Shown piece after piece: positions 5,681 to 35,037 of a DNA stretch of 64,000 nucleotides (position 1 is its first letter; the number at the start of each line of letters is the position of its first letter). The DNA is from Marsupella aquatica. Its lineage: Eukaryota; Plantae; Marchantiophyta. Under the pieces are notes generated by a model, which worked only from the letters and a program-made list of their open reading frames with translations, was not told the DNA's origin and did not search any database. Made by a program: the position numbers and the translations under genes. The stretch is taken from contig OZ316896.1 of NCBI GenBank assembly GCA_973895155.1, positions 16,852,754 through 16,916,753 on the forward strand, given 5' to 3'.

Positions 5681-6038
5681 TGTCATGCCGAGGGACAGTG
5701 CCTCTTATGCACATCGGCATGTCCCTCGCCTGCCCGCTAGGTATGTAGTTAGGGCTAGTGTACTACCTGAGTTAGCGACATGTTCTTGTAGCAAGTCTGG
5801 GCCGTTCTTGAAGCAAATGTGCTTGTTAGTGTGACGCCAGGACTTTGCTTGCTTAGGGCATGTCTTTCTTTGTGGGTTTTCAGTTCTTCTTGAATCGCTG
5901 TCGACAGAGCTCAGACAGTGCTCGTCGGTTCCATACACGGGATTCACACAGTGATTCGTTAGATGCTCCCGACCGATCTTGGCATCCCGCCGGTTTTCGA
6001 TTCGATTTCAGTACACTCGTTTCTCTTACGCCTTTTAT
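5681..6038 (+). repeat. Outer element terminal repeat A1 (~358 bp)
   Basis: Near-identical to 24709-25066 (about 3 substitutions seen by eye). Confidence 0.92.
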
Positions 6039-6051
6039 TCCAGAAGAACTG
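6037..6051 (+). promoter_or_regulatory. Putative self-priming primer-binding site, outer element
   Basis: ATTCCAGAAGAACTG directly after A1 is 14/15 complementary to CAGTTCTTCTTGAAT at 5881-5895. No TGG-type tRNA PBS is present. Confidence 0.7.
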
Positions 6052-7378
6052 TGATGAGGGGAAGAAGATCGGAGACGCTGTGCTTCTCAATTGCTCGAGA
6101 CAATTGACATTTTTCCGTTGATGCCGGTGCAATTTCTATGGAAAAACGTTGAGCGATGGGGTGGAAGTTATGGCTTGTGTGTATACACTTAAGTATATAC
6201 ACTTAAGTCAAACAGGCCCCCCCTCTCTCTTTTCCTTTGCGCTTTGCTTTCAGGGTTTTTCGTTTCCGGCCCCTGCCAACTGCTGCTTCAGCGCCTGCCA
6301 CGACCTTTTTTGGGCCGTATTTTGGTGTTCCCCGGCCAATTTCCGTCGCAAGCTGTTCCCCGGCCGCGACCCCTTTTTCTTTACTCGGCCTGCCGTCGCG
6401 AGCTGCTTCCGGCCCGGCAGCTACCCTGTCTGAGTGCTTGTGTATACACACATTCGGGGCCCATCAATGCCCCTGGGCGCGCTCCTTTCACTCGGCCTTA
6501 CGCACATAGGGCATCGTGCCCTGGTCTTAATAGAGCTGTTGGTAGGAGGGGGAGCCGAGCGGCAGCGCGAGGAGAGGAGGGGGCACAAAGCCCTATGAGG
6601 AATTAAGGAGGGGGAGGGGAGTTAAGTCGACTCCCTTCTCGGGAGTACATACGACTCCCTCCTTGGGAGTTTCTGCCAGGGGCAGAAGGCCCTATGAGGG
6701 ATTTAAAGCAAGGGGGAGGGGGAGTTGAAGCAGGGGTGCAAGGAGAGGGCACAAGGCCCTATGTTGCATTAAACGGACCTGGGGAGTACATTCGAGCCAG
6801 GCACGAGGCCCACAGTGCGTTTAAGAGGGGAGGGGGAGCTCATAGCCCCCACCTCTTCGGGAGCATAAGGAGAAGGGGGCGCGAAGCCCTATGCAGGGCT
6901 CGAGCCCATTAGGGGCCATTTCTTTTTCCTCGCCTCGCCCTTTTCTTTTTCGCCTCGCCTCGCTTTCGCTTTTATTCGTCTGTAGCATAGCGCACGGTGC
7001 CCGAGTGTGTATACACACTCGCTCGGTTGCCAGTCCCCACCTTATTTTTCTTTTCCGACACGCACCTTTCGTCAGTTTCTGGGTCCACGCCGGGGCCGAC
7101 GTATACACTTAAGGGCCCCCCCTTTCACATTTTTTGTGGCCATTTCTTTGCGGATTTCTTTGCTGCCGCCGACGGTCATCTGCATAGGGCTGCGGGCCCG
7201 GGGTATACACATGGGATGGCAATCCGACATTGCCTATGTATACACATAGGCCAGTGCGACAGGGACACAATTTGAGGTTTTAAGGGTCCTTTTCCCCGAC
7301 GGTCTTTTGACGGTGACGGGTTTTCTTAGTCTTTACACATTTTGCACATTTTGGGTACATCGGGTATTGTCACCCAGC

Positions 7379-8147
7379 ATGTCAGCAGACAAGCCGGGAG
7401 GTAGTAGCTCACCGCCACCAACACCTCGGTACCACTTACGGAGTGATCCACGACCATTGGTGCCAATTTCATTGGAATCTCGGCAATTTCGACGACGTCC
7501 GCAGACAGCAGCAGCACCCACACCACGCAATCCTTCTGCTCAATTTGGCAGTCGCTTCACCACTACCCCGAAGCCTGCTATCACTTCCTTGCCATTTACC
7601 CCTTCTGCATCAGTGGTTGTTCCAGCTTCACCGACATACAGCATGGATGCTAGCCACTCATCTGGCCGCATTGAGCGCTTCAGCGGGTGGCCAGGCACTG
7701 TCTCTTTATGTGAGTTCAAATCCACTTTCTACACTGTCGTTTACGAATTGGAGTTGAAGTATGGCAGCAATTTCACAAATGCTTTTGCATTTAAGCAGTT
7801 AGCCAGGTATGTGCACCATGAGGTGTTGGATGTGTATGAGCAGCACTCTCAACAGCTGCTTGCTGTCACACAGTTGCCTAACCCTACCTATGCTAGTGCA
7901 ATTATGGCAGTCTCACAATTGGCCTTACAGAATGCCATTGCAACCCATGCTGCTACTCCTGCCACTTCCCCTCCTACTCTAGTTCCCACCACTGCGCCAA
8001 TTACTCCCACTGTCTTGGCACAGGCTACATCAGGCATTTCTCCCACCATTGATTCCCCTGCCTTTGCTGATCCAGTGGTTGAGTTTTTCCAGGTTCTTGA
8101 ATTGGAATTCCCAATCAAGAGTGCTGATAAAATCATGCAGTTGGCCA
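7379..8147 (+). pseudogene. gag: Outer element gag, 5' part (cut by the nested insertion)
   Basis: MSADKPGG...KIMQLA, highly similar to the inner gag. Confidence 0.9.
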
Positions 8148-8323
8148 TGTCGTGACATATAGTATCGTAGCCATAGTGTATCGAAAACATACAAGTCACC
8201 GGCAATGCATATGTGCAAGCTGCTAGCAACCAACATGCATAGAAAAAGTCCAATCACATTCACAGGTGCCAAGAAAAAGCAACTGAGGTGGTATGTACGT
8301 AGTGGAGGTGTAAACCTCTGTAT
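8148..8323 (-). repeat. Inner element terminal repeat B2
   Basis: Copy of 8654-8829. Confidence 0.92.
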
Positions 8324-8651
8324 AAATCGAATCGAAAACCGGCAGGATGCCAAGATCGGTCGGGAGCATCTAACAAATCACTGTGTGAATCCCGTGTACG
8401 GAATCGACGAGCACTGTCTGAGCTCTGTCAACAGCGATTCAAGAAGAACTGAAGAACGGCAAAGAAAAACATGCCCTAAGTAGGACCGGGTCCAGGCGTC
8501 ATACTAACAAACCTCTTTTGCTTCAAGAACAGCCCAGACTCGCTACAAGAACATGACACTAACTCAAGTAGTACACTAGCCCTAACCATACCTAGCGGGC
8601 ATGCGAGGGACATGCCGATGTGCACAAGCGGCACTGTCCCTCGGCATGACA
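8324..8651 (-). repeat. Inner element repeat A2 (~30 bp short at its 3' end)
   Basis: Copy of 17571-17927 that ends at ...CGATTCGATTT instead of ...CGCCCTTTAT. Confidence 0.9.
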
Positions 8652-8653
8652 GC

Positions 8654-8829
8654 TGTCGTGACATATAGTATCGTAGCCATAGTGTATCGAAAACATACAA
8701 GTCACCGGTAATGCATATATGCAAGCTGCTAGCAACCAACATGCATAGAAAAAGTCCAATCACATTCACAGGTGCCAAGAAAAAGCAACTGAGGTGGTAT
8801 GTATGTAGTGGAGGTGTAAACCTCTGTAT
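8654..8829 (-). repeat. Inner element repeat B1
   Basis: Follows the G7 tract (C7 at 8830-8836 on +). Repeated at 8148-8323. Confidence 0.92.
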
Positions 8830-8868
8830 CCCCCCCAGACCACGGCCAAAAGGAGGGCTGAAGAAAAG

Positions 8869-11800
8869 TCAGATAGCACGTGGAGCACAGGAAGGGCAAA
8901 ACCATAACCCTTCTGGCACCTGGGTAAGTTCAGGCCGAAGGCAGAAAAGATGGTACCCTCCATTGCAATTGTCACACAGCAGCATCTGGTCAGCATCATC
9001 AATTTGCAAACACACTTTGCAAGGGTAGTCCACAGGTGGAATCCAAGTAGAAGTCACAATGGTGGGATCCAGGTTAGGCAGATGATAAGGGGCGCAATTC
9101 TTGGCATTGTCAGCAATTGTGCGCCCATCTGCCCCTTGTAACTCTAGCACTCCAGACGGTCGAATAGCTTTGAACCTGAGAATAGTGCGACTGGTAGAGG
9201 TGTCCAGGGTGTCGTTAGCTTGCCGCTGCAAGTACACAAAATCTCCCACTTCAAACTTCCTGACCTTGGGCTGAAAAGTGCCCCCTCGTGTGTGTGCATA
9301 ACGCAGTGTGTCCCTGTGCTGTGCAATGGCCAAATTCTCCATGGCCATGGGCATAACCCTCCTGAATAGGGCAGCCCTCTCAAAGATCACATCAGACCAA
9401 GTCACAGCTGAATCCAAGTCCACCACGTGAAGCATGTGAGAAGCAATAGCAGAAGGTGGAACTGGGTGACGACCAAACAACAAGAAGTAGGGAGAAAAGT
9501 TAGACAGTGATGCATGTTTGGACATCCTATACCCCATGGCAATGTAGGGTAAGGCCAGGTCCCAATCCTCCTTGTTTTTGGTGAGGCAGATCTTCCGAAG
9601 GCCCTTCTTGCATGTCTGAACCATGCGCTCTGCCAAGCCATCTGCCTGTGGGTGATCTCGTGATGTCCGGCGATGATCAATGAGAGCCTGATCAAGCAGC
9701 TCCTGGAACTCTCCTCTAAACTCTGAGCCCTGGTCAGTGAGACATTCTGCACAAGCTCCAAAGCGGCTGAGAACTTGTTGCAAGAATGCCTGGCTGGTGC
9801 TACGGGAGGTCTTATCCGGCAATGCCACAAGTTCTATCCACTTGGAGAAATGCTCTATCATGATCATGATGTAGAGATTACCCCGAGATGTGAGGGGTAA
9901 TTCTCCAGCCAAATCACATGACCAACGATAAAACATGCCCTGAATAGGGAGTGGATGAAGTGTGGGTTGCCGAGATGTGAAAGAAGTCCTTACCCTATCA
10001 CACTGCTCACACCGGGCAATAACATCTCGAACCTGGCCATGCATGCCTCTCCAATGATAACGGGGGACCAAGAGGCTATAAGTCCTCTTAACACCAAAAT
10101 GACCAAGCTCAGAATGTACCTTACGGATAAGGCCAACCCTCTCATGAATGGGTGGAACCACCACTTCCCTATCTGGCAAGCAGCGCACAAGATGATCTCC
10201 CTTCCACAAGTAGTGCTTGGACCTTTGCTGAATTCGGTCTCTCTGGGCAGCTGTAACATGGGTGGGGTACTCCCCATCCTGCAGAAATCTCAGAGTGTCG
10301 CTGTCCTCCCATATGTCCACCACAGGTTGGTCAACAATGTAGCATGGCAGCAAAGCAAGATAGGTAGATGCATGAAATGTAGGCAGGATGGAAACCTGGT
10401 CAAAATCCTGCCGTGCATCTGAGGGATCATCAGAGGCAATCAAAGGGCTGCGGGACATAGTGTCAGCATTTTGATGTGTCACACCAGGCCTATGAATTAC
10501 CTCAAAATTATACTCCTGGAGTATGAGTGCCCAACGAGCAAGCTTGCCAGTAAGCTTGTCGTTGGTCATCAACCACTTCAAGGGCTGGTGGTCGGTGTAG
10601 AGAACAAACCTGGTCCCATAGAGGTAGGGCCTGTAATGTATGACAGCCCACACAACAGCAAGGCATTCACCCTCATAAGAAGAATAATGACTCTCTGCCT
10701 GATTGTTGCTCCTGGATGCATAGGCAATGACGTACTCTTTACCTTCCTCATCATGCTGGCCCAGAATGGCACCAATCCCAAGGGCACTCCAATCTGTGTG
10801 TAGCACAAAGACCTTGTTGAAATCAGGTTTTCTCAGCACCGGGTATTCTGAGAGCTTCTCCTTCAAAGTGGCAAATGCTGCCTCAGCATCTGTACTCCAT
10901 GTCCAAGTCACATTCTTTTTCAACAAAGCATACAATGGGTGTGCAATGGTACTGAAATCTTTGATGTAGATCCGGTAGTAATTGCACAACCCAATAAAAC
11001 TCCTCAAAGTGTGAACATCGGTAGGAGTGGGCATTTCCAAGATGGATACCACCTTGGCCCAGTGAGCCATGGTTCCATTTGGAAGAATGCGATGCCCAAG
11101 ATATACTACTGATTTGACAGCAAATTCACACTTCTTGGGGTGTATCTTTAGGTTCACCTTCTTAAGCCTCATGAATAGCTCCTCAAGGTCAAGTAGATGC
11201 TGGTCAAATCCTTTGCTGTGGACCAACACATCATCAATGTAGCATTTCAAAAACTCAGCACCTTGAAGAACTTGGTCCATGACTCTTTGAAAGAATATGG
11301 GCGCATTCTTCAAGCCAAATGGCATCACCAACCACTCCCATAGTTGGTTACTACCATGGAAAGCTGTTTTCTTGCGGTCCTTTGCAAGCAGCAAAATCTG
11401 GTTGAAGCCTTGCCTTAGATCCACAAGAGTGAAGATGTCTGAGTCTCCAATGCTGTCAAATAGCTCCTCTGGCCGCGGCATGGGGTACCTGTCCTGGGTT
11501 GTGACCAGGTTCAATGGTCTGTAGTCCCCACACATGCGCTTCTCTGTCCACAATCCACTGGAATCCTTCTTTGCTGGCATCACTATAGCTGCCGCAAAAT
11601 CTGATGTAGATGGCTGAATAAGACCAGCTTCATAGAGCTCTTGGCACCTCTCATCCACCAGCTGCCACTCATGCTTACTCAAACGGTGTCTCCGCCTGAA
11701 GATAGGTGTTTCATCAGCCAACTCAATGGAGAACTGCATAGTCTTGCACTTACCCAAGTCCTTCATAGAGAAAGCAAACACATTCTCATGCTTGAGGAGC

Positions 11801-14800
11801 AAATTCAGCAGCTGGTCCTTCTGTCTTTTACTCAGGTGGTTGCCCATGATAAATGTGTAGTTGGCAACACTAGGAATAGGACCTGATGTACTCGTACTTG
11901 AAGAGCCAGAAGTGCCAGCCTCTCCACTGTCCAAGCTGCTAGCATGTTGCTGATAAGGTGATGAGGCCTCTCCAAGGCCTGCTGTATCTGTTGCTCTGGT
12001 CTGATCCACACCATGAAACTCAGAAATAATGTCAGCCACATTACAAGGGACCTCCTCCCCCCCAACACTTGGACTGAAGCGGTGAGTGTTGAATAGAGGT
12101 AAGTGCACCTGGTCTGGATGCCATGTAGCAGCACTGTGGAGGGGTAGGGCTGGAGCTCCTAGTGCTGGAGGAATGTACATCTGAAAAAGGATGCAAGTGA
12201 CCAGAAGCCAAGTGAGAGCATTGAGATCCATTACCCTGCCAAGTAAAGCATTCCTGGCCAGCCTGGTGATTTTGATGTGACCTATAGTACCGGGTTGGAA
12301 GCCCATAGCCCGTTCTCTCTCCTCAGGACTAGGTTCATCCCATGTACCGGTAGAATGTTGATAAACCAGCCCAGGACCATCACCCTGAAAAGCATGTGCA
12401 CCTGGAAAGGACACAAATGTAGGCCAACCAGCACGGGGTTGTCCAATGGTATTAGCTGGATACCAAGGTGCTGGCTCTTGCCGTGTAACTGGTTGGCAAG
12501 AACTGTCAGGATCCAAAATCTGGTCCACTGTAAGGTTAGTGTCCCTGGATGTGTGGTGAAGAGCCATCTCCAGCAAGGAAGGTGGTGCAAGGTTAGTCCA
12601 AAAGTTATGAAGACGATGTGCGTAAGAACCACAGTGCACTGCATCAATGAGAAGGGGTGGTCCCAAGTAGTGCTGGACCACACTGAAATCCTCTTTGACC
12701 TGTGGACGCTGGTCAAACTGAGATGGAGTATTCTCAATGATATAACCAACAGCAGGATAAAGGGATTGAGCCCAGGTGAGGATCTGAACCAATGCTGTGA
12801 AAAGGCCAGAACGAGAATCATGCAGTCCAGCACCGTGACCAGCAGCTGAAAACCCTTGGCATTCCCAACCAGCTATGATCAAATCAAGGGAGCCAAGAAG
12901 GGTTAAGTGCCGGTGCTGGACAAGCTGGATATCTGAAGGAAAGAAAGAAAATGCAGACTTCCATGCACTGTGTGGAAACTGCTGAGGAAATCGCTCTGAA
13001 AATTCCAGCAGACGGGATTCAGCCACTTGCCTTGCACCTGGATCAATATCCACATAGATGTACTGCTTCACCACCATGCCAGACTGTAGGAGAGCTTCCA
13101 GGCCTGTAGAAATGCCACCAAAAAGCTCAAGCAATGTAAGGCCATCTGAAGGAGGAGTCCATGTAACTGGTGCGCTCAAGATTGGGGCTATTGGTTGTCC
13201 ATGATGCTGCCCAAGGTCCTCAAATTTGTGCAATGCAGCCACCAAAGGTCCATGGGCTGCTTGGAGCCGTTGTACCACCTCTGGTTGATGATCCACATTG
13301 CTGGAAAGTGCTGCTATACGTGCAGCAGCATGTGCAGTAGCCACCTCATCATCATCCTCCTCAATCCAATCCTCCAATGGGTGGTTGACATAGGTAGCTG
13401 TGTGCACTGCTTTCAACACACAGTGGTGAGCCATAGGGGTATGGGCACCATGCAAATCCAGTGGAATGTATCCCAAGTGTGAGCCATCTGTATGCCAATC
13501 AACTCTGTAGTATGCATGCTCATGCCAGTTGTCAATGGTAAAACCTGGTGGGAACAAAGCCTCCTGGCCAATGAGCACATCATACGTAGTGGCATTGGTA
13601 ACCAAACATCTGACTGGGAAATGCAGTTCCTGATCTGTACCTCCATTAAAAGTGAGAGTGAGTAAAGTAGAACTCTCACCCAGCACATCCTCCACAGTGC
13701 CACTAGCAGTCCGAATATGCCACTTGGATGGCTGTAAATGATCAGTCAGCAGTCCCATCTTCTTGGCAAACTGAATGCCGAAGATTACTGGTTGAGCACC
13801 TGTGTCTAGCATGACCACCTGAGGAGTGTGACCCTCCAACTTGACTGCTGAATTCCTGTTGTCAACAATGGCAATGGTGGTGGAAACTAAAGTCCTGTCA
13901 CTAGGCACCACTTTTGGCAAATGATGAGGTACCTTGTGAAGGGAGTTAGTGTCCATGGTCTTCCCACTCAATAGCATAGCCAAGAAAGATGGAGCAGCAT
14001 GACCAGAATCAAGTGTAGCTCTGGTCACACAATCTGCAGCAATACTGTCATCTCTACCACTGGAAATTGGTACTGGGATAGCCAAACCAGTGGAAGCATG
14101 CAATGGAGAAGAAGAAGGTCCAGTATTAACATGAGATTGGACCTCCAAAACCGGTGTCACAGGGGCTGATGAAGAATGCAGTGAGCCCTCTAGCGCTCTG
14201 ATGACAGCTCTAGCATCCAGCTGTAAATCATGGCAACTGAAAAGTGGAGTGGTAAGAATCCTTTGTGCCATACCGGAGGTGAAATGCTCAAGCAGCTCAG
14301 GAAAAACAACTCCCTGTGAAATGTCAGCAGCACCTGGTGGTGGAATGGATGTAGCTGCAGCTCCCTCCCCCCTCGCCAACAAGGTGCGCTCTTCAGCAAG
14401 TGTGAGTGGCTGAAAAGATTGGGGCATGATAGCCCGAGCGCCCCTGGCTCTAGTCAGAGGACCGGCAGCAAGACCATCAGCCTGTACAATGCGGCGTGTG
14501 GGAGCAATACGGGAGGCATCACTGGCCTGCTGGTAAGCAAAATAGGAAGGGCAGAATGAATCTGAAAATTCTGCTGTAAGGCCAGGCTGTGGAGCAGAGG
14601 ATAGCACACACTCACCCATATGAGCATCAAATGGTAAGCCATAGAAAGAGCGGGGGAGAGGTGCTGAATTGTCAGCGGTGCCTGGGCCAAGGATGGGTTG
14701 CACGTGACCAGCCGGTTGAGAAGGACCAGCAGAGGCAGTGGACTTGCCTTTGATGTTGGCAAGTTGGGCACCTAAGGACTCAACCTCATGAGTCAGAGAC

Positions 14801-14868
14801 TGGAGTTGAGTTGCCTGTGCGTTGTGAGCCTCCTTCTGAGCTGGTTGCTTCTGTGGCTGCTTGGGCAA
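8869..14868 (-). CDS. pol: Pol part of the polyprotein: aspartic protease - C5 DNA methyltransferase - RT - RNase H - integrase - PHD finger
   Basis: Motifs: LDTGA (protease, ~13800); LELFGGISTG / AGWECQ / IIENT (MTase); RMCGDYRPLN, MPFGLKNAP, YIDD (RT; YIDD at 11230-11241); TDWS...EGECLA...TDH (RNase H); H-x4-H...C-x2-C, CDLAG, TDQG, ERMVQ (integrase); C4HC3 PHD. Gypsy domain order RT-RH-IN. Confidence 0.96.
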   Translation of the reverse strand: MPKQPQKQPAQKEAHNAQATQLQSLTHEVESLGAQLANIKGKSTASAGPSQPAGHVQPILGPGTADNSAPLPRSFYGLPFDAHMGECVLSSAPQPGLTAEFSDSFCPSYFAYQQASDASRIAPTRRIVQADGLAAGPLTRARGARAIMPQSFQPLTLAEERTLLARGEGAAATSIPPPGAADISQGVVFPELLEHFTSGMAQRILTTPLFSCHDLQLDARAVIRALEGSLHSSSAPVTPVLEVQSHVNTGPSSSPLHASTGLAIPVPISSGRDDSIAADCVTRATLDSGHAAPSFLAMLLSGKTMDTNSLHKVPHHLPKVVPSDRTLVSTTIAIVDNRNSAVKLEGHTPQVVMLDTGAQPVIFGIQFAKKMGLLTDHLQPSKWHIRTASGTVEDVLGESSTLLTLTFNGGTDQELHFPVRCLVTNATTYDVLIGQEALFPPGFTIDNWHEHAYYRVDWHTDGSHLGYIPLDLHGAHTPMAHHCVLKAVHTATYVNHPLEDWIEEDDDEVATAHAAARIAALSSNVDHQPEVVQRLQAAHGPLVAALHKFEDLGQHHGQPIAPILSAPVTWTPPSDGLTLLELFGGISTGLEALLQSGMVVKQYIYVDIDPGARQVAESRLLEFSERFPQQFPHSAWKSAFSFFPSDIQLVQHRHLTLLGSLDLIIAGWECQGFSAAGHGAGLHDSRSGLFTALVQILTWAQSLYPAVGYIIENTPSQFDQRPQVKEDFSVVQHYLGPPLLIDAVHCGSYAHRLHNFWTNLAPPSLLEMALHHTSRDTNLTVDQILDPDSSCQPVTRQEPAPWYPANTIGQPRAGWPTFVSFPGAHAFQGDGPGLVYQHSTGTWDEPSPEERERAMGFQPGTIGHIKITRLARNALLGRVMDLNALTWLLVTCILFQMYIPPALGAPALPLHSAATWHPDQVHLPLFNTHRFSPSVGGEEVPCNVADIISEFHGVDQTRATDTAGLGEASSPYQQHASSLDSGEAGTSGSSSTSTSGPIPSVANYTFIMGNHLSKRQKDQLLNLLLKHENVFAFSMKDLGKCKTMQFSIELADETPIFRRRHRLSKHEWQLVDERCQELYEAGLIQPSTSDFAAAIVMPAKKDSSGLWTEKRMCGDYRPLNLVTTQDRYPMPRPEELFDSIGDSDIFTLVDLRQGFNQILLLAKDRKKTAFHGSNQLWEWLVMPFGLKNAPIFFQRVMDQVLQGAEFLKCYIDDVLVHSKGFDQHLLDLEELFMRLKKVNLKIHPKKCEFAVKSVVYLGHRILPNGTMAHWAKVVSILEMPTPTDVHTLRSFIGLCNYYRIYIKDFSTIAHPLYALLKKNVTWTWSTDAEAAFATLKEKLSEYPVLRKPDFNKVFVLHTDWSALGIGAILGQHDEEGKEYVIAYASRSNNQAESHYSSYEGECLAVVWAVIHYRPYLYGTRFVLYTDHQPLKWLMTNDKLTGKLARWALILQEYNFEVIHRPGVTHQNADTMSRSPLIASDDPSDARQDFDQVSILPTFHASTYLALLPCYIVDQPVVDIWEDSDTLRFLQDGEYPTHVTAAQRDRIQQRSKHYLWKGDHLVRCLPDREVVVPPIHERVGLIRKVHSELGHFGVKRTYSLLVPRYHWRGMHGQVRDVIARCEQCDRVRTSFTSRQPTLHPLPIQGMFYRWSCDLAGELPLTSRGNLYIMIMIEHFSKWIELVALPDKTSRSTSQAFLQQVLSRFGACAECLTDQGSEFRGEFQELLDQALIDHRRTSRDHPQADGLAERMVQTCKKGLRKICLTKNKEDWDLALPYIAMGYRMSKHASLSNFSPYFLLFGRHPVPPSAIASHMLHVVDLDSAVTWSDVIFERAALFRRVMPMAMENLAIAQHRDTLRYAHTRGGTFQPKVRKFEVGDFVYLQRQANDTLDTSTSRTILRFKAIRPSGVLELQGADGRTIADNAKNCAPYHLPNLDPTIVTSTWIPPVDYPCKVCLQIDDADQMLLCDNCNGGYHLFCLRPELTQVPEGLWFCPSCAPRAI
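8887..9021 (-). other. PHD finger at the integrase C-terminus
   Basis: CKVC-x11-CDNC-x4-HLFC-x12-WFCPSC, a canonical C4HC3 pattern. Also intact in the outer copy (~24340-24476). Confidence 0.95.
12200..13150 (-). other. DNMT3-like cytosine-5 methyltransferase domain inside pol
   Basis: Motifs in canonical order: I LELFGGISTG, II YVDID, IV DLIIAGWECQ, VI ENT, VIII IDA...AHRLHNFWTNL, IX EERERAMGF, X RLARNALLGR. Confidence 0.92.
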
Positions 14869-16260
14869 TTTGTTAGCACCGGGGGCTTTGCCACTGGAAG
14901 GAGGAGCAACTGATGCAGTAGGAGCCCTCCTAGCTGGTGGGGGAGTGGAAACAGGAGCAGGATGAGTGGCCTGTTGTCGTAGCTGCTTCCGCTATGGGAA
15001 TTTGGCAAAACAAACTGCCTCCAAGTGGCCCACTTTCCCGCAAAAATCACAAGACAGGTCCTCAGCAACAATATCACATTCATTAGCCTTGTGATTAGGG
15101 TTACCACAGTAGTTGCAAGATGGCAGCATGAAAACAACATGTGCTGGCTTGGTCTTGGAACCATACTGTGGCACACGGGAAGGAGTGGCCAGTGTAGGGG
15201 CAGCAGCCTGGAACCTGGATCGCGGTGGACGCGCAATACTGGCCTCATAATGTGCATGGGCCAACTCAAGTTTCTCAGCAGTGTCATAGACATTGAGCAA
15301 GGTGTAGCTGTCTCCAAACTCTGAGAATATTTGCTGCAACACTTGCGAATGGAGAGCTGGTGTCCCCTCCAATGCGCGAAGATAGCGATGAGCAGCTTCC
15401 AGATCAGTGATGCTCTGGGTGTCCTCCTTCAGCTTGAGAAGCCGGCGATACATCATCTTCAATGTTTCATCGCGCTGCCTCACAAAGGTGGCCAACTGCA
15501 TGATTTTATCAGCACTCTTGATTGGGAATTCCAATTCAAGAACCTGGAAAAACTCAGCCACTGGATCAGCAAAGGCAGGGGAATCAATGGTGGGAGAAAT
15601 GCCTGATGTAGCCTGTGCCAAGATAGTGGGAGTAACTGGCGCAGTGGTGGGAACTGGAGTAGGAGGGGAAGTGGCAGGAGCAGCAGCATGGGCTGCAATG
15701 GCATTCTGTAAGGCCAATTGTGAGGCTGCCGTAATTGCACTGGCATAGGTAGGGTTAGGCAACTGTGTGACAGCAAGCAGCCGTTGAGAGTGCTGCTCAT
15801 ACACATCCAACGCCTCATGGTGCACATACCTGGCTGGCTGCTTAAATGCAAAAGCATTTGTGAAATTGCTGCCATACTTCAACTCCAATTCGCAAACGAC
15901 AGTGTAGAAAGTGGATTTGAACTCACGTAAAGAGATAGTGCCTGGCCGCCCGCTGAAGCGCTCAATGCGGCCAGATGAGTGGCTAGCATCCATGCTGTAT
16001 GTCGGTGAAGCTGGAACAACCACTGATGCAGAAGGGGTAAATGGCAATGAAGTGATAGCAGGCTTTGGAGTAGTGGTGAAGCGACCGCCAAATGTAGCAG
16101 AAGGATTGCGTGGTGTGGGTGCTGCTGCTGCTGTCTGCTGACGTCATCGAAATTGCCGAGGCTCCAATGAAATTGGCACCAATGGTCGTGGATCACTCCG
16201 TAAATGGTACCTGGATGTTGGTGGCGATGTGCTGCTACCTCCTGGCTCCTCTGCTGACAT
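14869..16260 (-). pseudogene. gag: Gag part of the same reading frame, with two premature stops
   Basis: ATG at 16260 (MSAEEPGG) is in frame with pol. Zinc knuckles CNYCGNPNHKANEC and CDFCGKVGHLEAVC. Stops at 16144-16146 (TGA; CGA in the outer copy) and 14992-14994 (TAG; GAG in the outer copy). Confidence 0.88.
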
Positions 16261-17557
16261 GCTGTGGTGTCCTTGCCGGATCGACGGTCTGATGTGTATG
16301 TCGGGCCTCAACCTTATGTAGATTACATGTGGCGGCAGCAAAGAAAGTGGGAAAATATGGGCCCTATGCAACGGTAGTCGAATATGTGAACTGGGCCCCT
16401 CTTAAGTGTATACACATTTGGGCCCCATTGTGGACCCGGAAACTGCAGCCGGACCGGTCGAGTGTGTATACACACTCGTAGCACACGGCCCTATGCAGCG
16501 CTAGTCGGATGGCTATGGAAAAGTCGAGGAGTCACTATGGCCGGCGAGGGAAAGAAACGGGAGGGCACGATGCCCTATGTACATACTGCGGAGCACAAAA
16601 GGCGTAAGGAGGAAAAGGCAAGACGCAGCGTGGCAAGGGCGAAGTAAAGAGATGGTGAAAAGAAAAGCATCGGGCCCCCATAGAGGGCTGCGAACTCCCC
16701 CCCTCCTCTCGTGCAATGTAATTTGGGCTCGTGCCCTGGCAGGAGCACTCCCGAGAAGGGAGTCGACTTAACTCCCCTCCCCCTTTAATGCTTCATAGGG
16801 CCTCGTGCCCTCTCCTCTCGCAGTCTCGCTTCAACTCCTCCCCCTCATTAATGCTGAATGGGGCCTTGTGCCTGGCAGAAGTGTGAGTCCCAAGAGGAGG
16901 GAGTCGAATGTACTCCCTCTCCTCCTTTTAATGCAGCATAGGGCCTCGTGCCCTCTCCCTGCGCTCCTGCCTTCGCTCCCCCTCCCCCTTCTTTAATGCT
17001 GCCTAGGGCCTCGTGCCCTCTCCTGGCGCTCCTTCCCCTTCCTCTGGCAGTCTGGCTGCTTAGAAATGGGCGAGGCAAGGGCACGATGCCCTATGCACAG
17101 CCTGCACACCAAAGCGGAAGGAGGTCGAGAGAAAGAGAAGAAAACGGGGCCCCCAAAGGCGAAAATGTAAAGAGGAGGCCGGGGTGGAAGCATGTCGAAA
17201 CGAGGGCACACGGCCCTATGCAGGCGTCTCGCTGCGGCCGAGGCAAAACTTGCCGGCAGCTGTGGCCGGGAATGCAAAAATGGCCCCAAAAACAGTCGAG
17301 GCAACAAGCGGCAGCAAGCGGCAGCAAGCGGCAGTAACAGTAAGAAGGAGCAAATGGGGTCACGGATGCAACCAGAAAATGAACTCTGGACCTCCTCGGG
17401 AGCATTGATATGTGTATACACTTAAGTATACACATAACAACATAAACCCATAACTTTCAACTCGTCGCTCCGATGTTCGTCGAAGAAATTGCAATGGCTT
17501 CACCAGAAATTATCAAAATCGTCACGAGCAAGCTTCTTTCCCTCACTGCCAACTCGG

Positions 17558-17572
17558 CAGTTCTTCTTGAAT
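17558..17572 (-). promoter_or_regulatory. Putative self-priming primer-binding site, inner element
   Basis: Perfect 15-bp inverted repeat of 17714-17728, which lies inside A1. Confidence 0.75.
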
Positions 17573-17927
17573 AAAGGGCGTAAGAGAAACAATTGTACTG
17601 AAATCGAATCGAAAACCGGCAGGATGCCAAGATCGGTCGGGAGCATCTAACGAATCACTGTGTGAATCCCGTGTACGGAATCGACGAGCACTGTCTGAGC
17701 TCTGTCAACAGTGATTCAAGAAGAACTGAAGAACGGCAAAGAAAAACATGCCCTAAGTAGGACCGGGTCCAGGCGTCCACTAACAAACCTCTTTTGCTTC
17801 AAGAACAGCCCAGACTCGCTACAAGAACATGACACTAACTCAAGTAGTACACTAGCCCTAACCATACCTAGCGGACATGCGAGGGACATGCCGATGTGCA
17901 CAAGCGGCACTGTCCCTCGGCATGACA
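17571..17927 (-). repeat. Inner element terminal repeat A1
   Basis: Near-identical to 8324-8651 and homologous to the outer A repeats. Confidence 0.92.
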
Positions 17928-17931
17928 GCCA

Positions 17932-20900
17932 CCCAGAGCATCACTGACCTGGAAGCTACTCATCGCTATCTTCGCGCATTGGAGGGCACACCAGCTCTCC
18001 ATTCGCAAGTGTTGCAGCAAGTATTCTCAGAGTTTGGAGACAGCTACACCTTGCTCAATGTCTATGACACTGCTGAGAAACTTGAATTGGCCCATGCCCA
18101 TTATGAGGCCAGTGTTGCGCGTCCACCGCGATCCAGGTACCAGGCTGCTGCCCCTACATTGGCCACCCCTTCCCGTGTGCCACAGTATGGTTCCAAGACC
18201 AAGCCAGCCCATGCTGCTCTCATGCTGCCATCTTGCAACTACTGTGGTAACCCCACTCACAAGGCTAATGAATGTGATATTGTTGCTGAGGACCTGTCTT
18301 GTGATTTTTGCGGGAAAGTGGGCCACTTGGAGGCAGTTTGTTTTGCCAAATTCCCAGAGAGAAAGCAGCTACGACAGTAGGCCACTCATCCTGCTCCTGT
18401 TTCCATTCCCCCACCAGCTAGGAGGGCTCCTACTGCATCGGTTGCTCCTCCTTCTAGTGGCAAAGCATCCAGTGCTAACAAATTGCCCAAGCAGCAACTG
18501 AAGCAACCAGCTCAGAAGGAGGCTCACAACGCACAGGCAACTCAACTCCAGTCTCTGACTCATAAGGTTGAGTCCTTACGTGCCCAACTTGCCAACATCA
18601 AAGGCAAGTCCACTGCCTCTGCTGGTCCTTCTCAACCGGCTGGTCATGTGCAACCCATCCCTGGCCCAGGCACCACTGACAGTTCAGCACCCCTACCCCG
18701 CTCTTTCTATGGCTTGCCATTTGATGCTCATATGGGTGAGTGTGTGCTGTCCTCTGCTACACAGCCTGGCCTACAGCAGAATTTTCAGATTCATTCTGTC
18801 CTTCCTATTTTGCTTACCAGCAGGCCAGTGCTGCCTCCCGTATTGCTCCCACACGCCGCATTGTACAGGCTGATGGCCTTGCTGCTGGTCCTATGACTAG
18901 AGCCAGGGGAGCTCGGGCTGTCATGCCCCAATCTTTTCAGCCACTCACACTTGCTGAAGAACGCACCTTGTTGGCAAGGGGGGAGGGAGCTGCAGCTACA
19001 TCCATTCCACCACCAGGTGCTGCTGACATTTCACAGGGAGTTGTTTTTCCTGAGCTGCTTGAGCATTTCACCTCCGGTATGGCACAAAGGATTCTTACCA
19101 CTCCACTTTTCAGTTGCCATGATTTACAGCTGGATGCTGGAGCTGTCATCAGAGCGCTAGAGGGCTCACTGCATTCTTCATCAGCCCTTGTGACACCGGT
19201 TTTGGAGGTCCAATCTCATGTAAATACTGGACCTTCTTCTTCTCCATTGCATGCTTCCACTGGTTTGGCTATCCCAGTACCGATTTCCAGTGGTAGAGAT
19301 GATAGTATTGCTGCAGATTGTGTGACCAGAGCTACACTTGATTCTGGTCATGCTGCTCCATCTTTCCTGGCTATGCTATTGAGTGGGAAGACCGTGGACA
19401 CTAACTCCCTTCACAAGGTACCTCATCATTTGCCAAAAGTGGTGCCTAGTGACAGGACTTTAGTTTCCACCACCATTGCCATTGTTGACAACAGGAATTC
19501 AGCAGTCAAGTTGGAGGGTCACACTCCTCAGGTGGTCATGCTAGACACAGGTGCTCAACCAGTGATATTGGGCATTCAGTTTTCCAAGAAGATGGGACTG
19601 TTGACTGATCATTTACAGCAATCCAGGTGGCACATTCGGACTGCTAGTGGCACTGTGGAGGATGTGCTGGGTGAGAGTTCTACTTTACTCACTCTCACTT
19701 TTAATGGAGGTACAGATCAGGAATTGCATTTCCCAGTCAGATGTTTGGTTACCAATGCCACTACGTATGATGTGCTCATTGGCCAGGAGGCTTTGTTCCC
19801 ACCAGGTTTTACCATTGACAATTGGCATGAGCATGCATACTACAGAGTTGATTGGCATACGGATGGCTCACACTTGGGCTACATTCCACTTGATTTGCAT
19901 GGTGCCCATACACCTATGGCTCACCACTGTGTGTTGAAAGCAGTGCACACAGCTACCTATGTCAACCACCCATTGTAGGATTGGATTGAGGAGGATGATG
20001 ATGAGGTGGCTACTGCACATGCTGCTGGACGTATAGTAGCACTTTCCAGCAACGTGGATCATCAACCAGAGGTGGTACAACGGCTCCAAGCAGCCCATGG
20101 ACCTTTGGTGGCTGCATTGCGCAAATTTGAGGATCTAGGGCAGCACAATGGCCAACCAATAGCCCCAATCTTGAGCGTACCAGTTACATGGACTCCTCCT
20201 TCAGATGGCCTTACATTGCTTGAGCTTTTTGGTGGCATTTCTACAGGCCTGGAAGCTCTCCTAAAGTCTGGCATGGTGGTGAAGCAGTACATCTATGTGG
20301 ATATTGATCCAGGTGCAAGGCAAGTGGCTGAATCCCGTCTGCTGGAATTTTCAGAGCGATTTCCCCAGCAGTTTCCACATAGTGCATGGAAGTCTGCATT
20401 TTCTTTCTTCCCTCCAGATATCCAGCTTGTCCAGCACCGGCACTTAACCCTTCTTGGCTCCCTTGATTTGATCATAGCTGGTTGGGAATGCCAAGGGTTT
20501 TCAGCTGCTGGTCACGGTGCTGGACTGCATGATTCTCGTTCTGGCCTTTTCACAGCATTGGTTCAGATTCTCACCTGGGCTCAATCCCTTTATCCTGCTG
20601 TTGGTTATATCATTGAGAATACTCCATCTCAGTTTGACCAGCGTCCACAGGTCAAAGAGGATTTCAGTGTGGTCCAGCACTACTTGGGACCACCCCTTCT
20701 CATTGATGCAGTGCACTATGGTTCTTATGCACATCGTCTTCGTAACTTTTGGACTAACCTTGCACCACCTTCCTTGCTGGAGATGGCTCTTCACCACACA
20801 TCCATGCCAGGGACACTAACCTTACAGTGGACCAGATTTTGGATCCTGACAGTTCTTGCCAACCAGTTACACGGCAAGAGCCAGCACCTTGGTATCCAAC

Positions 20901-23900
20901 CAATACCATTGGACAACCCCGTGCTGCTTGGCCTACATTTGTGTCCTTTCCAGGTGCACATGCTTTTCAGGGTGATGGTCCTGGTCTGGTTTATCGACAT
21001 TCTACCGGTACATGGGATGAACCTAGTCCTGAGGAGAGAGAACGGGCTATGGGCTTCCAACCCGGTACTACAGGTCACACCAAAATCACCAGGCTGGCCA
21101 GGAATGCTTTACTTGGCAGGGTAATGGATCTCAATGCTCTCACTTGGCTTCTGGTCACTTGCATCCTTTTTCAGATGTACATTCCTCCAGCATTAGGAGC
21201 TCCAGCCTTACCACTCCACAGTGCTGCTGCATGGCATCCAGACCAGGTGCACTTACCTCTGTCCAACACTCACCACTTCAGTCCAAGTGTTGGGGGGGGA
21301 GGAGGTCCCTTGTAATGCGGCTGACATTATTTATGAGTTTCATGGTGTGGACCACTTCGGATCAGCAGGTACAACAGGCCTTGGAGAGGCCTCATCACCT
21401 TATCAGCAGCATGCTAGCAGCTTGGACAGTGGAGAGGCTGGCACTTCTGGCTCTTCAAGTACGAGTACATCAGGTCCTATTCCTAGTGTTGCCAACTACA
21501 CATTTATCATGGGCAACCACCTGAGTAAAAGACAGAAGGACCAGCTGCTGAATTTGCTCCTCAAGCATGAGAATGTGTTTGCTTTCTCTATGAAGGACTT
21601 GGGTAAGTGCAAGACTATGCAGTTCTCCATTGAGTTGGCTGATGAAACACCTATCTTCAGGCGGAGACACCGTTTGAGTAAGCATGAGTGGCAGCTGGTG
21701 GATGAGAGGTGCCAAGAGCTCTATGAAGCTGGTCTTATTCAGCCATCTACATCAGATTTTGCGGCAGCTACAGTGATGCCAGCAAAGAAGGATTCCAGTG
21801 GATTGTGGACAGAGAAGCGCATGTGTGGGGACTACAGGCCATTGAACCTGGTCACACCCCAGGACAGGTACCCCATGCCATGGCCAGAGGAGCTATTTGA
21901 CAGCATTGGAGACTCAGACATCTTCACTCTTGTGGATCTAAGGCAAGCCTTTAACCAGATTTTGCTACTTGCAAAGGACCGCAAGAAAACAGCTTTCCAT
22001 GGCAGTAACCAACTATGGGAGTGGTTGGTGATGCCATTTGGCTTGAAGAATGCGCCCATATTCTTTCAAAGAGTCATGGACCAGGTTCTTCAAGGTGCTG
22101 AGTTTCTGAAATGCTACATTGATGATGTGTTGGTCCACAGCAAAGGATTTGACCAGCATCTACTTGACCTTGAGGAGCTATTCATGAGGCTTAAGAAGGT
22201 GAACCTAAAGATACACCCCAAGAAGTGTGAATTTGCTGTCAGATCAGTAGTATACCTTGGGCACCGCATTCTTCCAAATGGAACCATGGCTCACTGGGCC
22301 AAGGTGGTATCCATCTTGGAAATGCCCACTAGCCTCGAGATGTGAGGGGTAATTCTCCAGCCAAATCACATGACCAGCGATAAAACATGCCCTGAATAGG
22401 GAGTGGATGAAGTGTGGGTTGCCGAGATGTGAAAGAAGTCCTCACCCTATCACACTGTTCACACCGGGCAATAACATCTCGAACCTGGCCATGCATGCCT
22501 CTCCAATGATAATGAGGGACCAAGAGGCTGTAAGTCCTCTTAATGCCAAAATGACCAAGCTCAGAATGTACCTTATGGATAAGGCCAACCCTCTCATGAA
22601 TGGTTGGAACCATCACTTCCCTGTCTGGCAAGCAGCGCACGAGATGATCTCCCTTCCACAAGTAGCGCTTGGACCTTCGCTGAATTCAGTCTCTCTGGGC
22701 AGCAGTAACATGTGTGGGTAACTCCCCATGCTGCAGAAATCTCAGAGTGTCGTTGTCCTCCCATATGTCCACCACAGGTTGGTCAACAACATAGCATGGC
22801 AGCAAAGCAAGATAGGTAGATGCATGAAATGTAGGCAGGATGGAAACCTGGTCAAAATCCTGCCGTGCATCTGAGGAATCATTAGAGGTAATCAAAGGGC
22901 TACGGGACATAGTGTCAGCATTCTGATGTGTCACACCAGGCCTATGAATTACCTCAAAGTCATACTCCTGGAGTATGAGCGCCCAACGAGCAAGCTTGCC
23001 AGTAAGCTTGTCATTGTTCATCAACCACTTCAAGGGCTGGTGGTCGGTGTAGAGGACAAACCTGGTCCCATAGAGGTAGGGTCTGTAATGTATGACAACC
23101 CACACAACAGCAAGGCATTCACCCTCATACGAAGAATAATGACTCTCTGCCTGATTGTTGCTCCTGGATGCATAGGCAATGACGTACTCTTTACCTTCCT
23201 CATCATGCTGGCCCAGAATGGCACCAATCCCAAGGGCACTCCAATCTGTGTGTAGCACAAAGACCTTGCTGAAATCAGGTCTTCTCAGCACCGGGTATTC
23301 TGAGAGCTTCTCCTTCAAAGTGGCAAATGCTGCCTCAGCATCTGTACTCCATGTCCAAGTCACATTCTTTTTCAACAAAGCATACAATGGATGTGCAATG
23401 GTGCTGAAATCTTTGATGTAGATCCGGTAGTAATTGCACAACCCAATAAAACTCCTCAAAGTGTGAACATCGGTAGGAGTATAATCTCTACATCATGATC
23501 ATGATAGAGCATTTCTCCAAGTGGATAGAACTTGTGGCATTGCCGGATAAGACCTCCCGTAGCACCAGGCAGGCATTCCTGCAACAAGTTCTCAGCCGCT
23601 TTGGAGCTTGTGCAGAATGTCTCATTGACCAGGGCTCAGAGTTTAGAGGAGAGTTCCAGGAGCTGCTTGATCAGGCCCTCATTGATCATCGCCGGACATC
23701 ACGAGATCACCCACAGGCAGATGGCTTGGCAGAGCGCATGGTTCAGACATGCAAGAAGGGTCTCCGGAAGATCTGCCTCACCAAAAACAAGGAGGATTGG
23801 GACCTGGCCTTACCCTACATTGCCATGGGGTATAGGATGTCCAGACATGCATCACTGTCTAACTTTTCTCCCTACTTCTTGTTGTTTGGTCGTCACCCAG

Positions 23901-24493
23901 TTCCACCTTCTGCTATTGCTGCTCACATGCTTCAGGTGGTGGACTTGGATTCAGCTGTGACTTGGTCTGATGTGATCTCTGAGAGGGCTGCCCTATTCAA
24001 GAGGGTTATGCCCATGGCCATGGAGAATTTGGCCATTGCACAGCACAGGGACACACTGTGTTATGCACACACACGAGGGGGCACTTTTCAGCCCAAGGTC
24101 AGGAAGTTTGATGTGGGAGATTTTGTGTACTTGCAGCGGCAAGCTAACGACAACCTGGACACCTCTACCAGTCATACTATTCTCAGGGTTAAAGCTATTC
24201 GACCGTCTGGAGTGCTAGAGTTACAAGGGGCAGATGGGCGCACAATTGCTGACAATGCTAAGAATTGTGCCCCTTGTCATCTGCCTAACCTAGATCCCAC
24301 CATTGTGACTTCTACTTGGATTCCACCTGTGGACTACCCTTGCAAGGTGTGTTTGCGAATTGATGATGCTGACCAGATGCTGCTGTGTGACAATTGCAAT
24401 GGAGGGTACCATCTTTTCTGCCTTCGGCCTGAACTTACCCAGGTGCCAGAAGGGTTATGGTTTTGCCCTTCTTGTGCTCCACGTGCTACCTGA
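17932..24493 (+). pseudogene. Outer element gag-pol, 3' part; pseudogenised
   Basis: Collinear with the inner ORF. Stops at 18378 and 19976, plus 22686 within the inversion. Frameshifts near 18770, 20803 and 21295. Internal inversion at ~22333-23480. DNMT domain at ~20200-21170. Confidence 0.92.
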
Positions 24494-24525
24494 ATTTTCT
24501 TCAGCCCTCCTTTTGGCTGTGGTCT

Positions 24526-24532
24526 GGGGGGG
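24526..24532 (+). promoter_or_regulatory. Polypurine-tract-like G7 (outer); inner equivalent at 8830-8836 (-)
   Basis: G7 run ~33 bp after the pol stop, immediately abutting B1 in both copies. Confidence 0.7.
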
Positions 24533-24706
24533 ATACAGAGGTTTACACCTCCACTACGTACATACCACTTCATTTGCTTTCTTGGCACTTGTGAATGTGA
24601 TTGGACTTTTTCTATGCATGTTGGTTGCTAGCAACTTGCACATATGCCTTGCCGGTGACTTGTATGTTTTCGATACACTATGGCTACGATACTATATGTC
24701 ACGACA
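24533..24706 (+). repeat. Outer element repeat B1 (~174 bp)
   Basis: Starts ATACAGAGG right after a G7 tract and ends TGTCACGACA. Repeated at 25067-25224. Confidence 0.92.
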
Positions 24707-24708
24707 GC

Positions 24709-25066
24709 TGTCATGCCGAGGGACAGTGCCTCTTATGCACATCGGCATGTCCCTCGCCTGCCCGCTAGGTATGTAGTTAGGGCTAGTGTACTACCTGAGT
24801 TAGCGACATGTTCTTGTAGCAAGTCTGGGCCGTTCTTGAAGCAAATGTGCTTGTTAGTGTGACGCCAGGACTTTGCTTGCTTAGGGCATGTCTTTCTTTG
24901 TGGGTTTTCAGTTCTTCTTGAATCGCTGTCGACAGAGCTCAGACAGTGCTCGTCGGTTCCATACACGGGATTCACACAGTGATTCGTTAGATGCTCCCGG
25001 CCGATCTTGGCATCCCGCCGGTTTTCGATTCGATTTTAGTACACTTGTTTCTCTTACGCCTTTTAT
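24709..25066 (+). repeat. Outer element repeat A2
   Basis: Copy of 5681-6038, separated from B1 by the dinucleotide GC. Confidence 0.92.
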
Positions 25067-25224
25067 ATACAGAGGTTTACACCTCCACTACGTACATACC
25101 ACTTCATTTGCTTTTTCTTGGCACTTGTGAATGTGATTGGACTTTTCTATGCATGTTGGTTGCTAGTAGCTTGCACATATGCCTTGCCGGTGACTTGTAT
25201 GTTTTCGATACATATGTCACGACA
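25067..25224 (+). repeat. Outer element terminal repeat B2
   Basis: Copy of B1 with a ~17-bp deletion near the CGATAC repeats. Ends ...CACGACA followed by the TSD. Confidence 0.9.
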
Positions 25225-34129: not shown

Positions 34130-35037
34130 CCCACAATACATTAGCCAGGTCTGAACTTGTGTAATGCACTTAGCAAGAGCTGAAGAGCCAGATGCCTTGC
34201 AATTACGGAGATTTTGCACTTAGGAGTGTGCACTGAGGAAGAGCTGAGTTCCTACAATACATGAACCAGGTTTGCACTTAGTATTGCACTTAGGAAGAGC
34301 TGAAGAGCACATGCCTTGCATTTAGGCAGGATTTGCACTCCAGGAGTGTGCACTGAGGAAGAGCTGACTGTATGAGTCCCCTACAATACATGAACCAGGT
34401 TTGCACTTAGTATTGCACTTAGGAAGAGCTGAAGAGCACATGCCTTGCATTTAGGCAGGATTTGCACTCCAGGAGTGTGCACTGAGGAAGAGCTGACTGT
34501 ATGAGTCCCCTACAATACATGAACCAGGTTTGCACTTAGTATTGCACTTAGGAAGAGCTGAAGAGCACATGCCTTGCATTTAGGCAGGATTTGCACTCCA
34601 GGAGTGTGCACTGAGGAAGAGCTGACTGTATGAGTCCCCTACAATACATGAACCAGATGCCTTCTCAATTTGGCAGTGTCTTGCAATGAGGAAGAACTGA
34701 CTGTACATGCACTCATAAAATACATGAGCCATGTTTGGCACTTACGTATGGCACTTAGGATGAGCTGAAGCACTAGATGCCTTGCAATTAGGCAGATTTT
34801 GCACTTATGCATTGCGTCAAGTAACAGTTGAAAGAGCTAGATGCCTTGCAATTATGCAGGGTCTGCACTTATGGAGCGTGCACTGAGGAAGAGCTGACTG
34901 TACGAGTCCCTACAATACATGAGCCAAGTGTGCACTTATGTACTGCCCTAAGTAAGAGTTGAAGAACTGGATGCCTTTGCAATTAGGCAGGGTATGCACT
35001 TATGGAGTGTGCACTGAGGAAGAGCTGACTGTACGAG
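34130..35037. repeat. Tandem array with a 129-bp unit
   Basis: TACAATACATGAACCAG recurs at 34253, 34382, 34511 and 34640. Three near-identical units with diverged flanking units. Confidence 0.92.

Follow-up and report, generated by a model that had tools for sequence, protein, structure and literature searches.

Nested Ty3/gypsy elements in a liverwort with circularly permuted terminal repeats and a predicted self-primed, junction-cutting route of integration

The 64,000-nucleotide stretch of Marsupella aquatica contig OZ316896.1 analysed in this study (the window) contains two nested copies of one Ty3/gypsy retroelement family, which were delimited by self-BLAST and direct reading. Element 1 occupies 5681-25224 on the plus strand and is flanked by target-site duplications (TSDs) of TATA at 5677-5680 and 25225-25228. 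Element 2 lies on the minus strand at 17927-8148, inserted in the gag gene of element 1, and its TSDs read GCCA on the plus strand (8144-8147 beside its 3' end and 17928-17931 beside its 5' end). Both elements start with TGTCATG and end with CACGACA, and their TSDs are 4 bp long, with no extension to 5 bases in either. The TG…CA termini and TSD length are those of Ty3/gypsy elements (4-6 bp). However, neither copy has two complete direct long terminal repeats (LTRs) at its ends. Both share the order A1, internal region, G7, B1, GC, A2, B2, in which the left end consists of A only. The initial annotation of this DNA had described the same layout, termini and TSDs, and our reading agrees with it.

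In element 1, A1 (5681-6038) corresponds to a U3+R-like part, and a putative primer-binding site (PBS) with one mismatch lies directly 3' of it at 6039-6050. The 5' part of gag (7379-8147) is broken by element 2. The remaining gag-pol region (17932-24493), which is 90-96% identical to element 2 by tblastn, contains stops, a frameshift and a 1.15-kb inversion. It is followed by the G7 polypurine tract (PPT; 24526-24532), B1 (24533-24706), the GC spacer (24707-24708), A2 (24709-25066) and B2 (25067-25224). The end of A2 coincides exactly with the PBS boundary and the start of B2 with the PPT boundary. Element 2, read on the minus strand, begins with A1 (17571-17927) and the PBS TCAAGAAGAACT (17559-17570). 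Its gag (14992-16260) is in frame with pol and damaged by two in-frame stops, and its pol (8869-14991) is an open frame of 2040 aa. The right end comprises G7 (8830-8836), B1 (8654-8829), GC (8652-8653), A2 (8324-8651) and B2 (8148-8323), and A2 is 28 bases short on the side of B2.

Several further features were seen in the two copies. The inversion in element 1 pol (22333-23480, no strand assigned) has a few extra bases at each breakpoint and may be real or made by assembly. A 69-bp deletion lies in element 1 exactly at the insertion site of element 2 (8147/17928), and CACC is common to both deletion ends. The long 5' leaders contain purine-rich imperfect tandem repeats (6546-6795 and 16693-17036) with a recurring GGGCAC…GCCCTATG word, and outside these repeats the leaders are far more diverged between the elements than the coding regions are.

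We compared the repeats within and between the two elements. Within an element, the two A copies differed by 0.6% and 1.2% and the two B copies by 1.3% and 1.7%. Between the elements, the mismatches were 8.6-9.2% for A and 2.9-5.1% for B. This indicates that each cycle regenerates A1 from A2 and B2 from B1. For the A repeats, regeneration at each replication had been proposed from the letters alone.

The proteins of the element were examined with Pfam. Matches were found for protease, reverse transcriptase (RT), RNase H (RH), HHCC and rve integrase (IN), and a PHD finger, so that the domain order is protease-RT-RH-IN with a Ty3-like RT and an HHCC+DDE integrase. The best match of element 2 pol in the PDB was Ty3 Gag-Pol (E 1.5e-91). 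Neither the two main open reading frames (ORFs) nor the 20 frames scanned among the 32 others listed for element 2 (at least 90 aa) matched a tyrosine recombinase in Pfam. The integrase and, in the frames scanned, the missing recombinase ORF of the initial annotation were both confirmed; the methyltransferase described below, the C-terminal PHD finger, the short A2 of element 2 and the inversion of element 1 are additions to that annotation. The enzymes are not those of the DIRS order, which has a tyrosine recombinase without a DDE integrase. A chromodomain also had no Pfam match; the PHD finger is at the C-terminus instead, which differs from the chromodomain elements of the Tf1/sushi and Tcn1 groups. 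Between protease and RT lies a Dnmt3-like C5 cytosine methyltransferase (DNMT) domain (12157-13146, minus strand, PF00145). Its best PDB match was DNMT3A, it is 41% identical to the Klebsormidium nitens protein P0036, and the position of the catalytic cysteine is kept. A Dnmt3-like domain inside a Gypsy Pol is the arrangement of KnitGypsy-Dnmt3, described below. The domain was also present in most sister loci that cover its region, and its motif IV reads WECQG in element 2 and several relatives and WPCQG in K. nitens. In the integrase (window about 9640-9930, minus strand), the second D and the E are 34 residues apart, likewise in P0004, P0006 and P0036. The usual spacing is 35 residues. This shortening by one residue across the clade may be relevant to junction cutting.

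The order of the repeats suggests how they relate to ordinary LTRs. In LTR replication, the duplicated repeat spans PPT to PBS. In the window elements, A2+B2 makes a full TG…CA unit and B-GC-A makes a full PPT-to-PBS unit, which points to circularly permuted LTRs. The initial annotation had spoken of direct repeats instead of LTRs, which is not quite right in this respect. In an ordinary element the PBS follows the first LTR and the PPT precedes the second, whereas here the PPT precedes B1 and not A2. In the middle of the B-GC-A unit, the integrase ends CACGACA and TGTCATG meet across two bases and form a CAGCTG palindrome (CA^GC^TG). The spacer was two bases in all 20 related loci scored and was GC or a transition of GC in 18 (L016 was left out because its junction is rearranged). 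The CA-GC-TG junction was also found in the third subfamily (L147 and L148). As a separate observation, the GC spacer was altered by transitions in 13 of 20 loci (L001-L054), a pattern that CHG methylation of CAGCTG would be expected to leave. We also considered whether the DNMT might mark one of the junctions, and no evidence supported this.

We next describe the related loci. A scan of metagenome contigs covering 6 of 64 parts gave 80 loci. BLAST of window A and B against these sister loci gave no matches, and therefore profiles of A, B and their neighbours were built from the sister loci themselves; the nine loci used for this match the profiles by construction. A coding-strand B match was present in 37 loci, and after removal of 3 duplicates and 2 that end too soon, 32 were scored. 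The right end was B-A-B in 18 of these, ended after B1 in 12, and was B-A followed by other DNA in 2. B was never found upstream of A1 in the 20 loci having A1. Both ends were available in 10 loci, and their TSDs were exact at 4 bp in 4, matched at 3 of 4 bases in 2 and at 2 of 4 in 2, and were absent in 2. The initial annotation had proposed a tabulation of arrangement and TSD length for the copies in the genome; the one given here is of related loci. It had also named, as a refutation, the case in which most members carry two complete LTRs; this was not seen, and among the loci of the clade none had full AB LTRs at both ends. Two ordinary LTRs together with a TGGTATCAGA site were found in three more distant Gypsy loci (L060, L062 and L077, 41-42% identity).

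A third subfamily was represented by L147 and L148, at 55% protein identity. Both carry G7, B, GC and A, and L148 also has B2. These were the close loci among 74 from genome contigs, and they come from a prokaryotic genome record whose source DNA is presumably eukaryotic carry-over. The contig of L147 is circular and carries a single B-GC-A unit; it was not taken as a one-LTR circle and was treated as an assembly collapse of repeats. A scan of viral contigs gave badnavirus-like and distant matches only. In short-read contigs from three runs and two organisms, 17, 9 and 14 contigs exited behind the B end and 13, 6 and 14 before the A start. Their flanks were many and unlike each other, and at least one exact joint of A2 and B2 was present. 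One of the three runs may derive from the same source as the window. The related loci and the short-read contigs together provide the family-level support for the layout.

An accident of nested or tandem insertions of ordinary LTR elements, or of assembly, might produce such an order of repeats, and the locus is indeed nested, with an inversion in element 1. However, both copies show this layout and each has TSDs of its own, and it recurs in 18 distinct related loci and in L148. It has also been reported in Klebsormidium (PMC5890265, figure legend), and the clade gave no locus with two full AB LTRs. This explanation is largely refuted, and we consider it extremely improbable.

Close named relatives were found in the liverwort Calypogeia fissa (69%) and the peat moss Sphagnum compactum (57%), which agrees with a bryophyte host. 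A quick tree of RT-RH was built from 38 rows, none of them a Tf1/sushi or Tcn1 reference sequence. In it, the window and sister families formed a clade with a support of 100 in the Shimodaira-Hasegawa-like approximate likelihood ratio test (SH-aLRT). A wider clade of 26 of the 38 rows (SH-aLRT 95) added proteins of Klebsormidium, Closterium, Haematococcus and Tetrabaena, so that the window element groups with those of K. nitens in this tree. Two loci labelled 'split' in the tree, L048 and L005, have layouts that could not be confirmed. P0036 is 46% identical to the window element over RT-RH-IN, and from its species and domains we infer that it is a copy of KnitGypsy-Dnmt3.

The sequence following A1 was then compared with the rest of the element. 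No tRNA-type PBS was found after A1, and a tRNA or half-tRNA PBS was considered and dropped for want of a TGG-type site at that place. What stands there is the reverse complement of a 12-mer inside A, and this 12-mer lies about 30 bases behind a TATA-like box. The predicted transcript start and self-primer is AGTTCTTCTTGA at 17716-17727 (minus strand) in element 2 and lies at 5882-5893 (plus strand) in element 1, where it was placed as the complement of the PBS and by the TATA distance in relatives. The exact complement was 15 bases in element 2, L030 and L011 and 13 bases in L147, and none of 1000 shuffles matched any of them. Since the loops of the primer and PBS regions do not align across subfamilies, pairing was counted directly. 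The 12-mers of the three subfamilies pair at 12 of 12 positions with their own PBS and at 10, 5 or 3 of 12 with those of the others. In 20 sister loci, 218 of 240 primer-PBS positions pair, with G-T allowed and the sites chosen by best match to the family motif. The usual distance from TATA box to start served as the yardstick for the predicted RNA start. In 19 of the 20 sister loci, a TATA-like box precedes the first A by 31-34 bases, and L147 has a TATA-like word about 30 bases upstream of the primer. These results suggest that the element likely uses a Tf1-type self-primer, in which the 5'-terminal 12 bases of the element's RNA prime reverse transcription at a PBS complementary to them.

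The joint between A2 and B2 (the A2/B2 seam) showed a different behavior from the two-base spacer. In the window family, the sister family and L147/L148, the end of A2 is the PBS boundary and the start of B2 is the PPT boundary. The seam was exact in 8 of 18 sister loci and imprecise in 10, with 1-3 bases lost, filler or extension. In the window it was exact in element 1, and 28 bases were lost in element 2. Filler DNA was present at the seam in L016 and L052, and an extra G of the PPT was kept in L030. In L033 (10907-11210), the start of B2 is shifted about 137 bases upstream, to a PPT-like GG/ATAC site, so that pre-PPT sequence and the PPT are carried along. In L010 (7462-13363), gag is broken and its broken ends meet the exact A2 end on one side and the B2 start on the other, with the segment between them inverted. 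In L037, B2 is lost and unrelated DNA follows directly after A2. Taken as DNA, the seam behaves like a join of two free cDNA ends, each defined by a primer.

Based on these features, we propose the following route. The RNA would begin in A1 at the primer and end in or past A2, and the self-primed minus strand would transfer from A1 to A2. The plus strand would initiate at G7 and copy B-GC-A. A normal second jump would then give a linear cDNA of the form B0-GC-A1-internal-B1-GC-A2, with B-GC-A at both ends. Integrase would nick after CA on both strands of the palindromic B0^A1 junction, leaving the usual 2-base overhangs, and the nicked ends would be inserted with a 4-bp stagger. The A2 end would be joined to the B0 start by end joining, before or after insertion. 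Opening such a cDNA at B0^A1 and joining A2 to B0 would give exactly the observed element. The left junction may be preferred, as it would be double-stranded first and the right junction would need about 9 kb of plus strand to be made beforehand. For copies that stop after B1, the source would be a one-LTR circle or recombination between B1 and B2, and such copies would be replication-incompetent. Copies of the sister family are old, with a pairwise divergence of about 15%, and mean divergence was 0.155 in B-only copies (n=12) and 0.153 in B-A-B copies (n=17, L014 left out; p = 0.47). The B-only copies are thus not older than the B-A-B copies, and this comparison does not separate the two origins.

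The A2/B2 seam could also be made before integration. The same permuted, self-primed cDNA might be closed by a third end-to-end template jump of RT in the particle, from the A end to the B start, after which integrase would open the left junction, with no host end joining. The eight exact seams agree with such a jump, as do the short letters shared at the seam (AT in two families) and the CTTGA common to the PBS start and B start of L147, with which the L148 seam begins. It would also account for the rarity of B2 loss. However, the filler in L016 and L052, the 28-base loss in element 2 and the seam rearrangements of L010 and L037 resemble repair of free ends, and the PBS of L148 itself is absent from its contig. 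We regard this RT jump as unlikely.

Alternatively, the seam might be inherited. In copying of the PAT and Ngaro kind, the RNA would run through B2, switches between A1 and A2 and between B1 and B2 would rebuild a linear TG…CA cDNA, and integrase would process it in the ordinary way. The layout is that of the A1-B1-A2-B2 repeats of PAT and Ngaro (PMC4157794, as described there for these elements), and no bias between junctions is required, which fits the absence of mirror products (0 of 20). Such copying leaves several features without a reason: in three subfamilies the A2 end coincides with the PBS boundary and the B2 start with the PPT boundary, the PPT precedes B1 rather than A2, and B2 carries PPT-side sequence in L030 and L033. 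We therefore judge inheritance of the seam quite improbable.

The absence of mirror products also bears on the form of the substrate. If a free two-LTR circle were used and integrase cut either CA-GC-TG junction at random, the heterogeneity of the seam would suit circle junctions, and junction cutting has been reported for foamy virus (PMC1180852). Random cutting predicts A-B-GC-A-internal-B and A-internal-B-A-B in equal numbers, whereas B upstream was found in 0 of 20 loci and B-A-B in 18 of 32. Some mirror copies could have escaped notice if A x A recombination collapses them quickly. A free circle as the substrate thus appears very improbable.

Some points weigh against the linear-cDNA route with left-junction cutting and end joining. 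Every mechanistic step is inferred from DNA, in which the layout, the 4-bp TSDs, the G-run before B1, the PBS-A complementarity, the two-base spacer and the variable seam are seen. The mirror product A-B-GC-A-internal-B is absent from all 20 loci although both internal junctions are identical in sequence, and the reason given above for the left-junction bias is a guess. Exact 4-bp TSDs are present in just 4 of the 10 related loci with both ends, and part of the variation at the seam may be later decay, as the sister copies are old. The PBS mismatch of element 1 is accompanied by a predicted fold without the primer helix, and a permissive test of complementarity was not significant for element 1 (53 of 100 shuffles) or for L013, L014, L028 and L042. 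The window family also lacks a clear TATA box at -30 and has only a weak TACTTAGG-like site.

With these points considered, we think it probable that the window element is a Ty3/gypsy relative of KnitGypsy-Dnmt3 with a permuted LTR, self-primed, whose integrase cuts the left internal CA^GC^TG junction and whose cDNA ends are joined as A2/B2. We put forward only tentatively, as a possibility with somewhat less than even chances, a wider proposal: that in an old green-plant clade (chlorophytes, Klebsormidium, Closterium and bryophytes) the integrase sites have shifted from the cDNA ends to the middle of the LTR, junction cutting is obligate, the linear cDNA is inserted as two arms and the host closes the A2/B2 break at each insertion. 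If this is true, it would be a third mode of integration for an LTR element and would lead from ordinary LTRs to DIRS-like split repeats in a single step. The window element is a natural high-copy element whose anatomy seemingly leaves integrase no substrate except joined ends.

Other features of the window were noted outside the two elements. An imperfect inverted repeat of about 210 bases (25466-25677) lies just right of element 1. It is probably a small high-copy DNA element, since many unlike contig flanks precede 25463-25464. An intronless ORF of 880 aa with a C-terminal coiled coil (28122-30764, minus strand) had no Pfam match above the cut-off and may be an accessory ORF of another element. 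At 34127-35038 there is a degenerate tandem array whose units recur about every 120-130 bases. A long single-exon frame of Armadillo/HEAT repeats (49495-52605, plus strand) is likely a host gene.

Among known systems, the nearest is KnitGypsy-Dnmt3 of K. nitens (de Mendoza et al. 2018, PMC5890265). The legend of its Fig. 4c gives DIRS-arranged repeats with Gypsy domains, and Fig. 1e draws the DIRS-type order as A-coding-B-A-B. The window element shares with it the Gypsy Pol with a Dnmt3-like domain, the A-coding-B-A-B repeats as published in the legend, and the wider RT-RH clade. The initial annotation had held that this combination fits neither known class. Gypsy enzymes do stand here with PAT/Ngaro-like repeats, but the claim was overstated, as the combination was already noted for KnitGypsy-Dnmt3. 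The TSD, PBS, spacer and mechanism given here are absent from the text, legends and supplement passages of PMC5890265 that were consulted. The name KnitGypsy-Dnmt3 was found in no other paper of the literature searched, and a search that did not extend to Repbase, theses and subscription journals gave no description of self-priming, a permuted LTR, junction cutting or bryophyte presence for the group. The sections of a 2026 preprint on adenine-methyltransferase elements (10.64898/2026.05.21.726589) that we considered held nothing on layout or mechanism. Gypsy domains with a DIRS-like layout are thus already in print, and the self-primed internal-junction mechanism was not found in print. The permuted-LTR model would account for the layout noted without a mechanism in 2018, and DNMT-carrying Gypsy elements are extended to land plants.

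In its predicted priming, the element resembles Tf1/Tj1, Tf1/sushi and Tcn1. Tj1 and Tf1 are self-primed, with a PBS complementary to their own RNA 5' end (PMC4600332, passages on priming), and self-priming has been predicted for Tcn1 in mosses (PMC6317226, likewise). The corresponding complementarity is predicted from DNA here. These elements have two complete LTRs with integrase sites at the LTR ends, whereas the sites of the window element lie inside the PPT-to-PBS repeat. Unlike Tf1/sushi and Tcn1, it has a PHD finger and no chromodomain match. Gypsy-7a_cRei also carries a PHD finger, and we rejected it as an example of the same layout because its LTRs are near-complete in the material of PMC9940879 that concerns it. 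LTR-FINDER, which stands behind REXdb, requires a 5' and a 3' LTR (PMC6317226, methods as stated there). The initial annotation was therefore right that standard LTR finders miss this layout, and the family cannot be delimited by two-LTR finders.

The A1-B1-A2-B2 split direct repeats are shared with PAT, TOC and Ngaro of the DIRS order (PMC4157794). In contrast to these, the window element has a DDE integrase, a protease, TG…CA ends, a 4-bp TSD, a PPT and a PBS, and its RT-RH is nearest to Ty3 among solved structures. Its likeness to the tyrosine-recombinase elements is one of layout only, and it is not a member of that order. Split repeats can arise without a recombinase.

The predicted cutting step also has parallels. 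In the junction intermediates of the IS3 family, a DDE enzyme opens abutted ends across a short spacer. The cleavage of two-LTR circles in foamy virus is similar, and its integrase has been reported to cut palindromic LTR-LTR junctions; whether joined LTR ends are a true integration substrate is debated for retroviruses (PMC1180852). In both of these systems every cycle makes the junction anew from the DNA ends, whereas in the window element the junction is encoded in the repeat, and a second, non-att seam would be formed from the cDNA ends.

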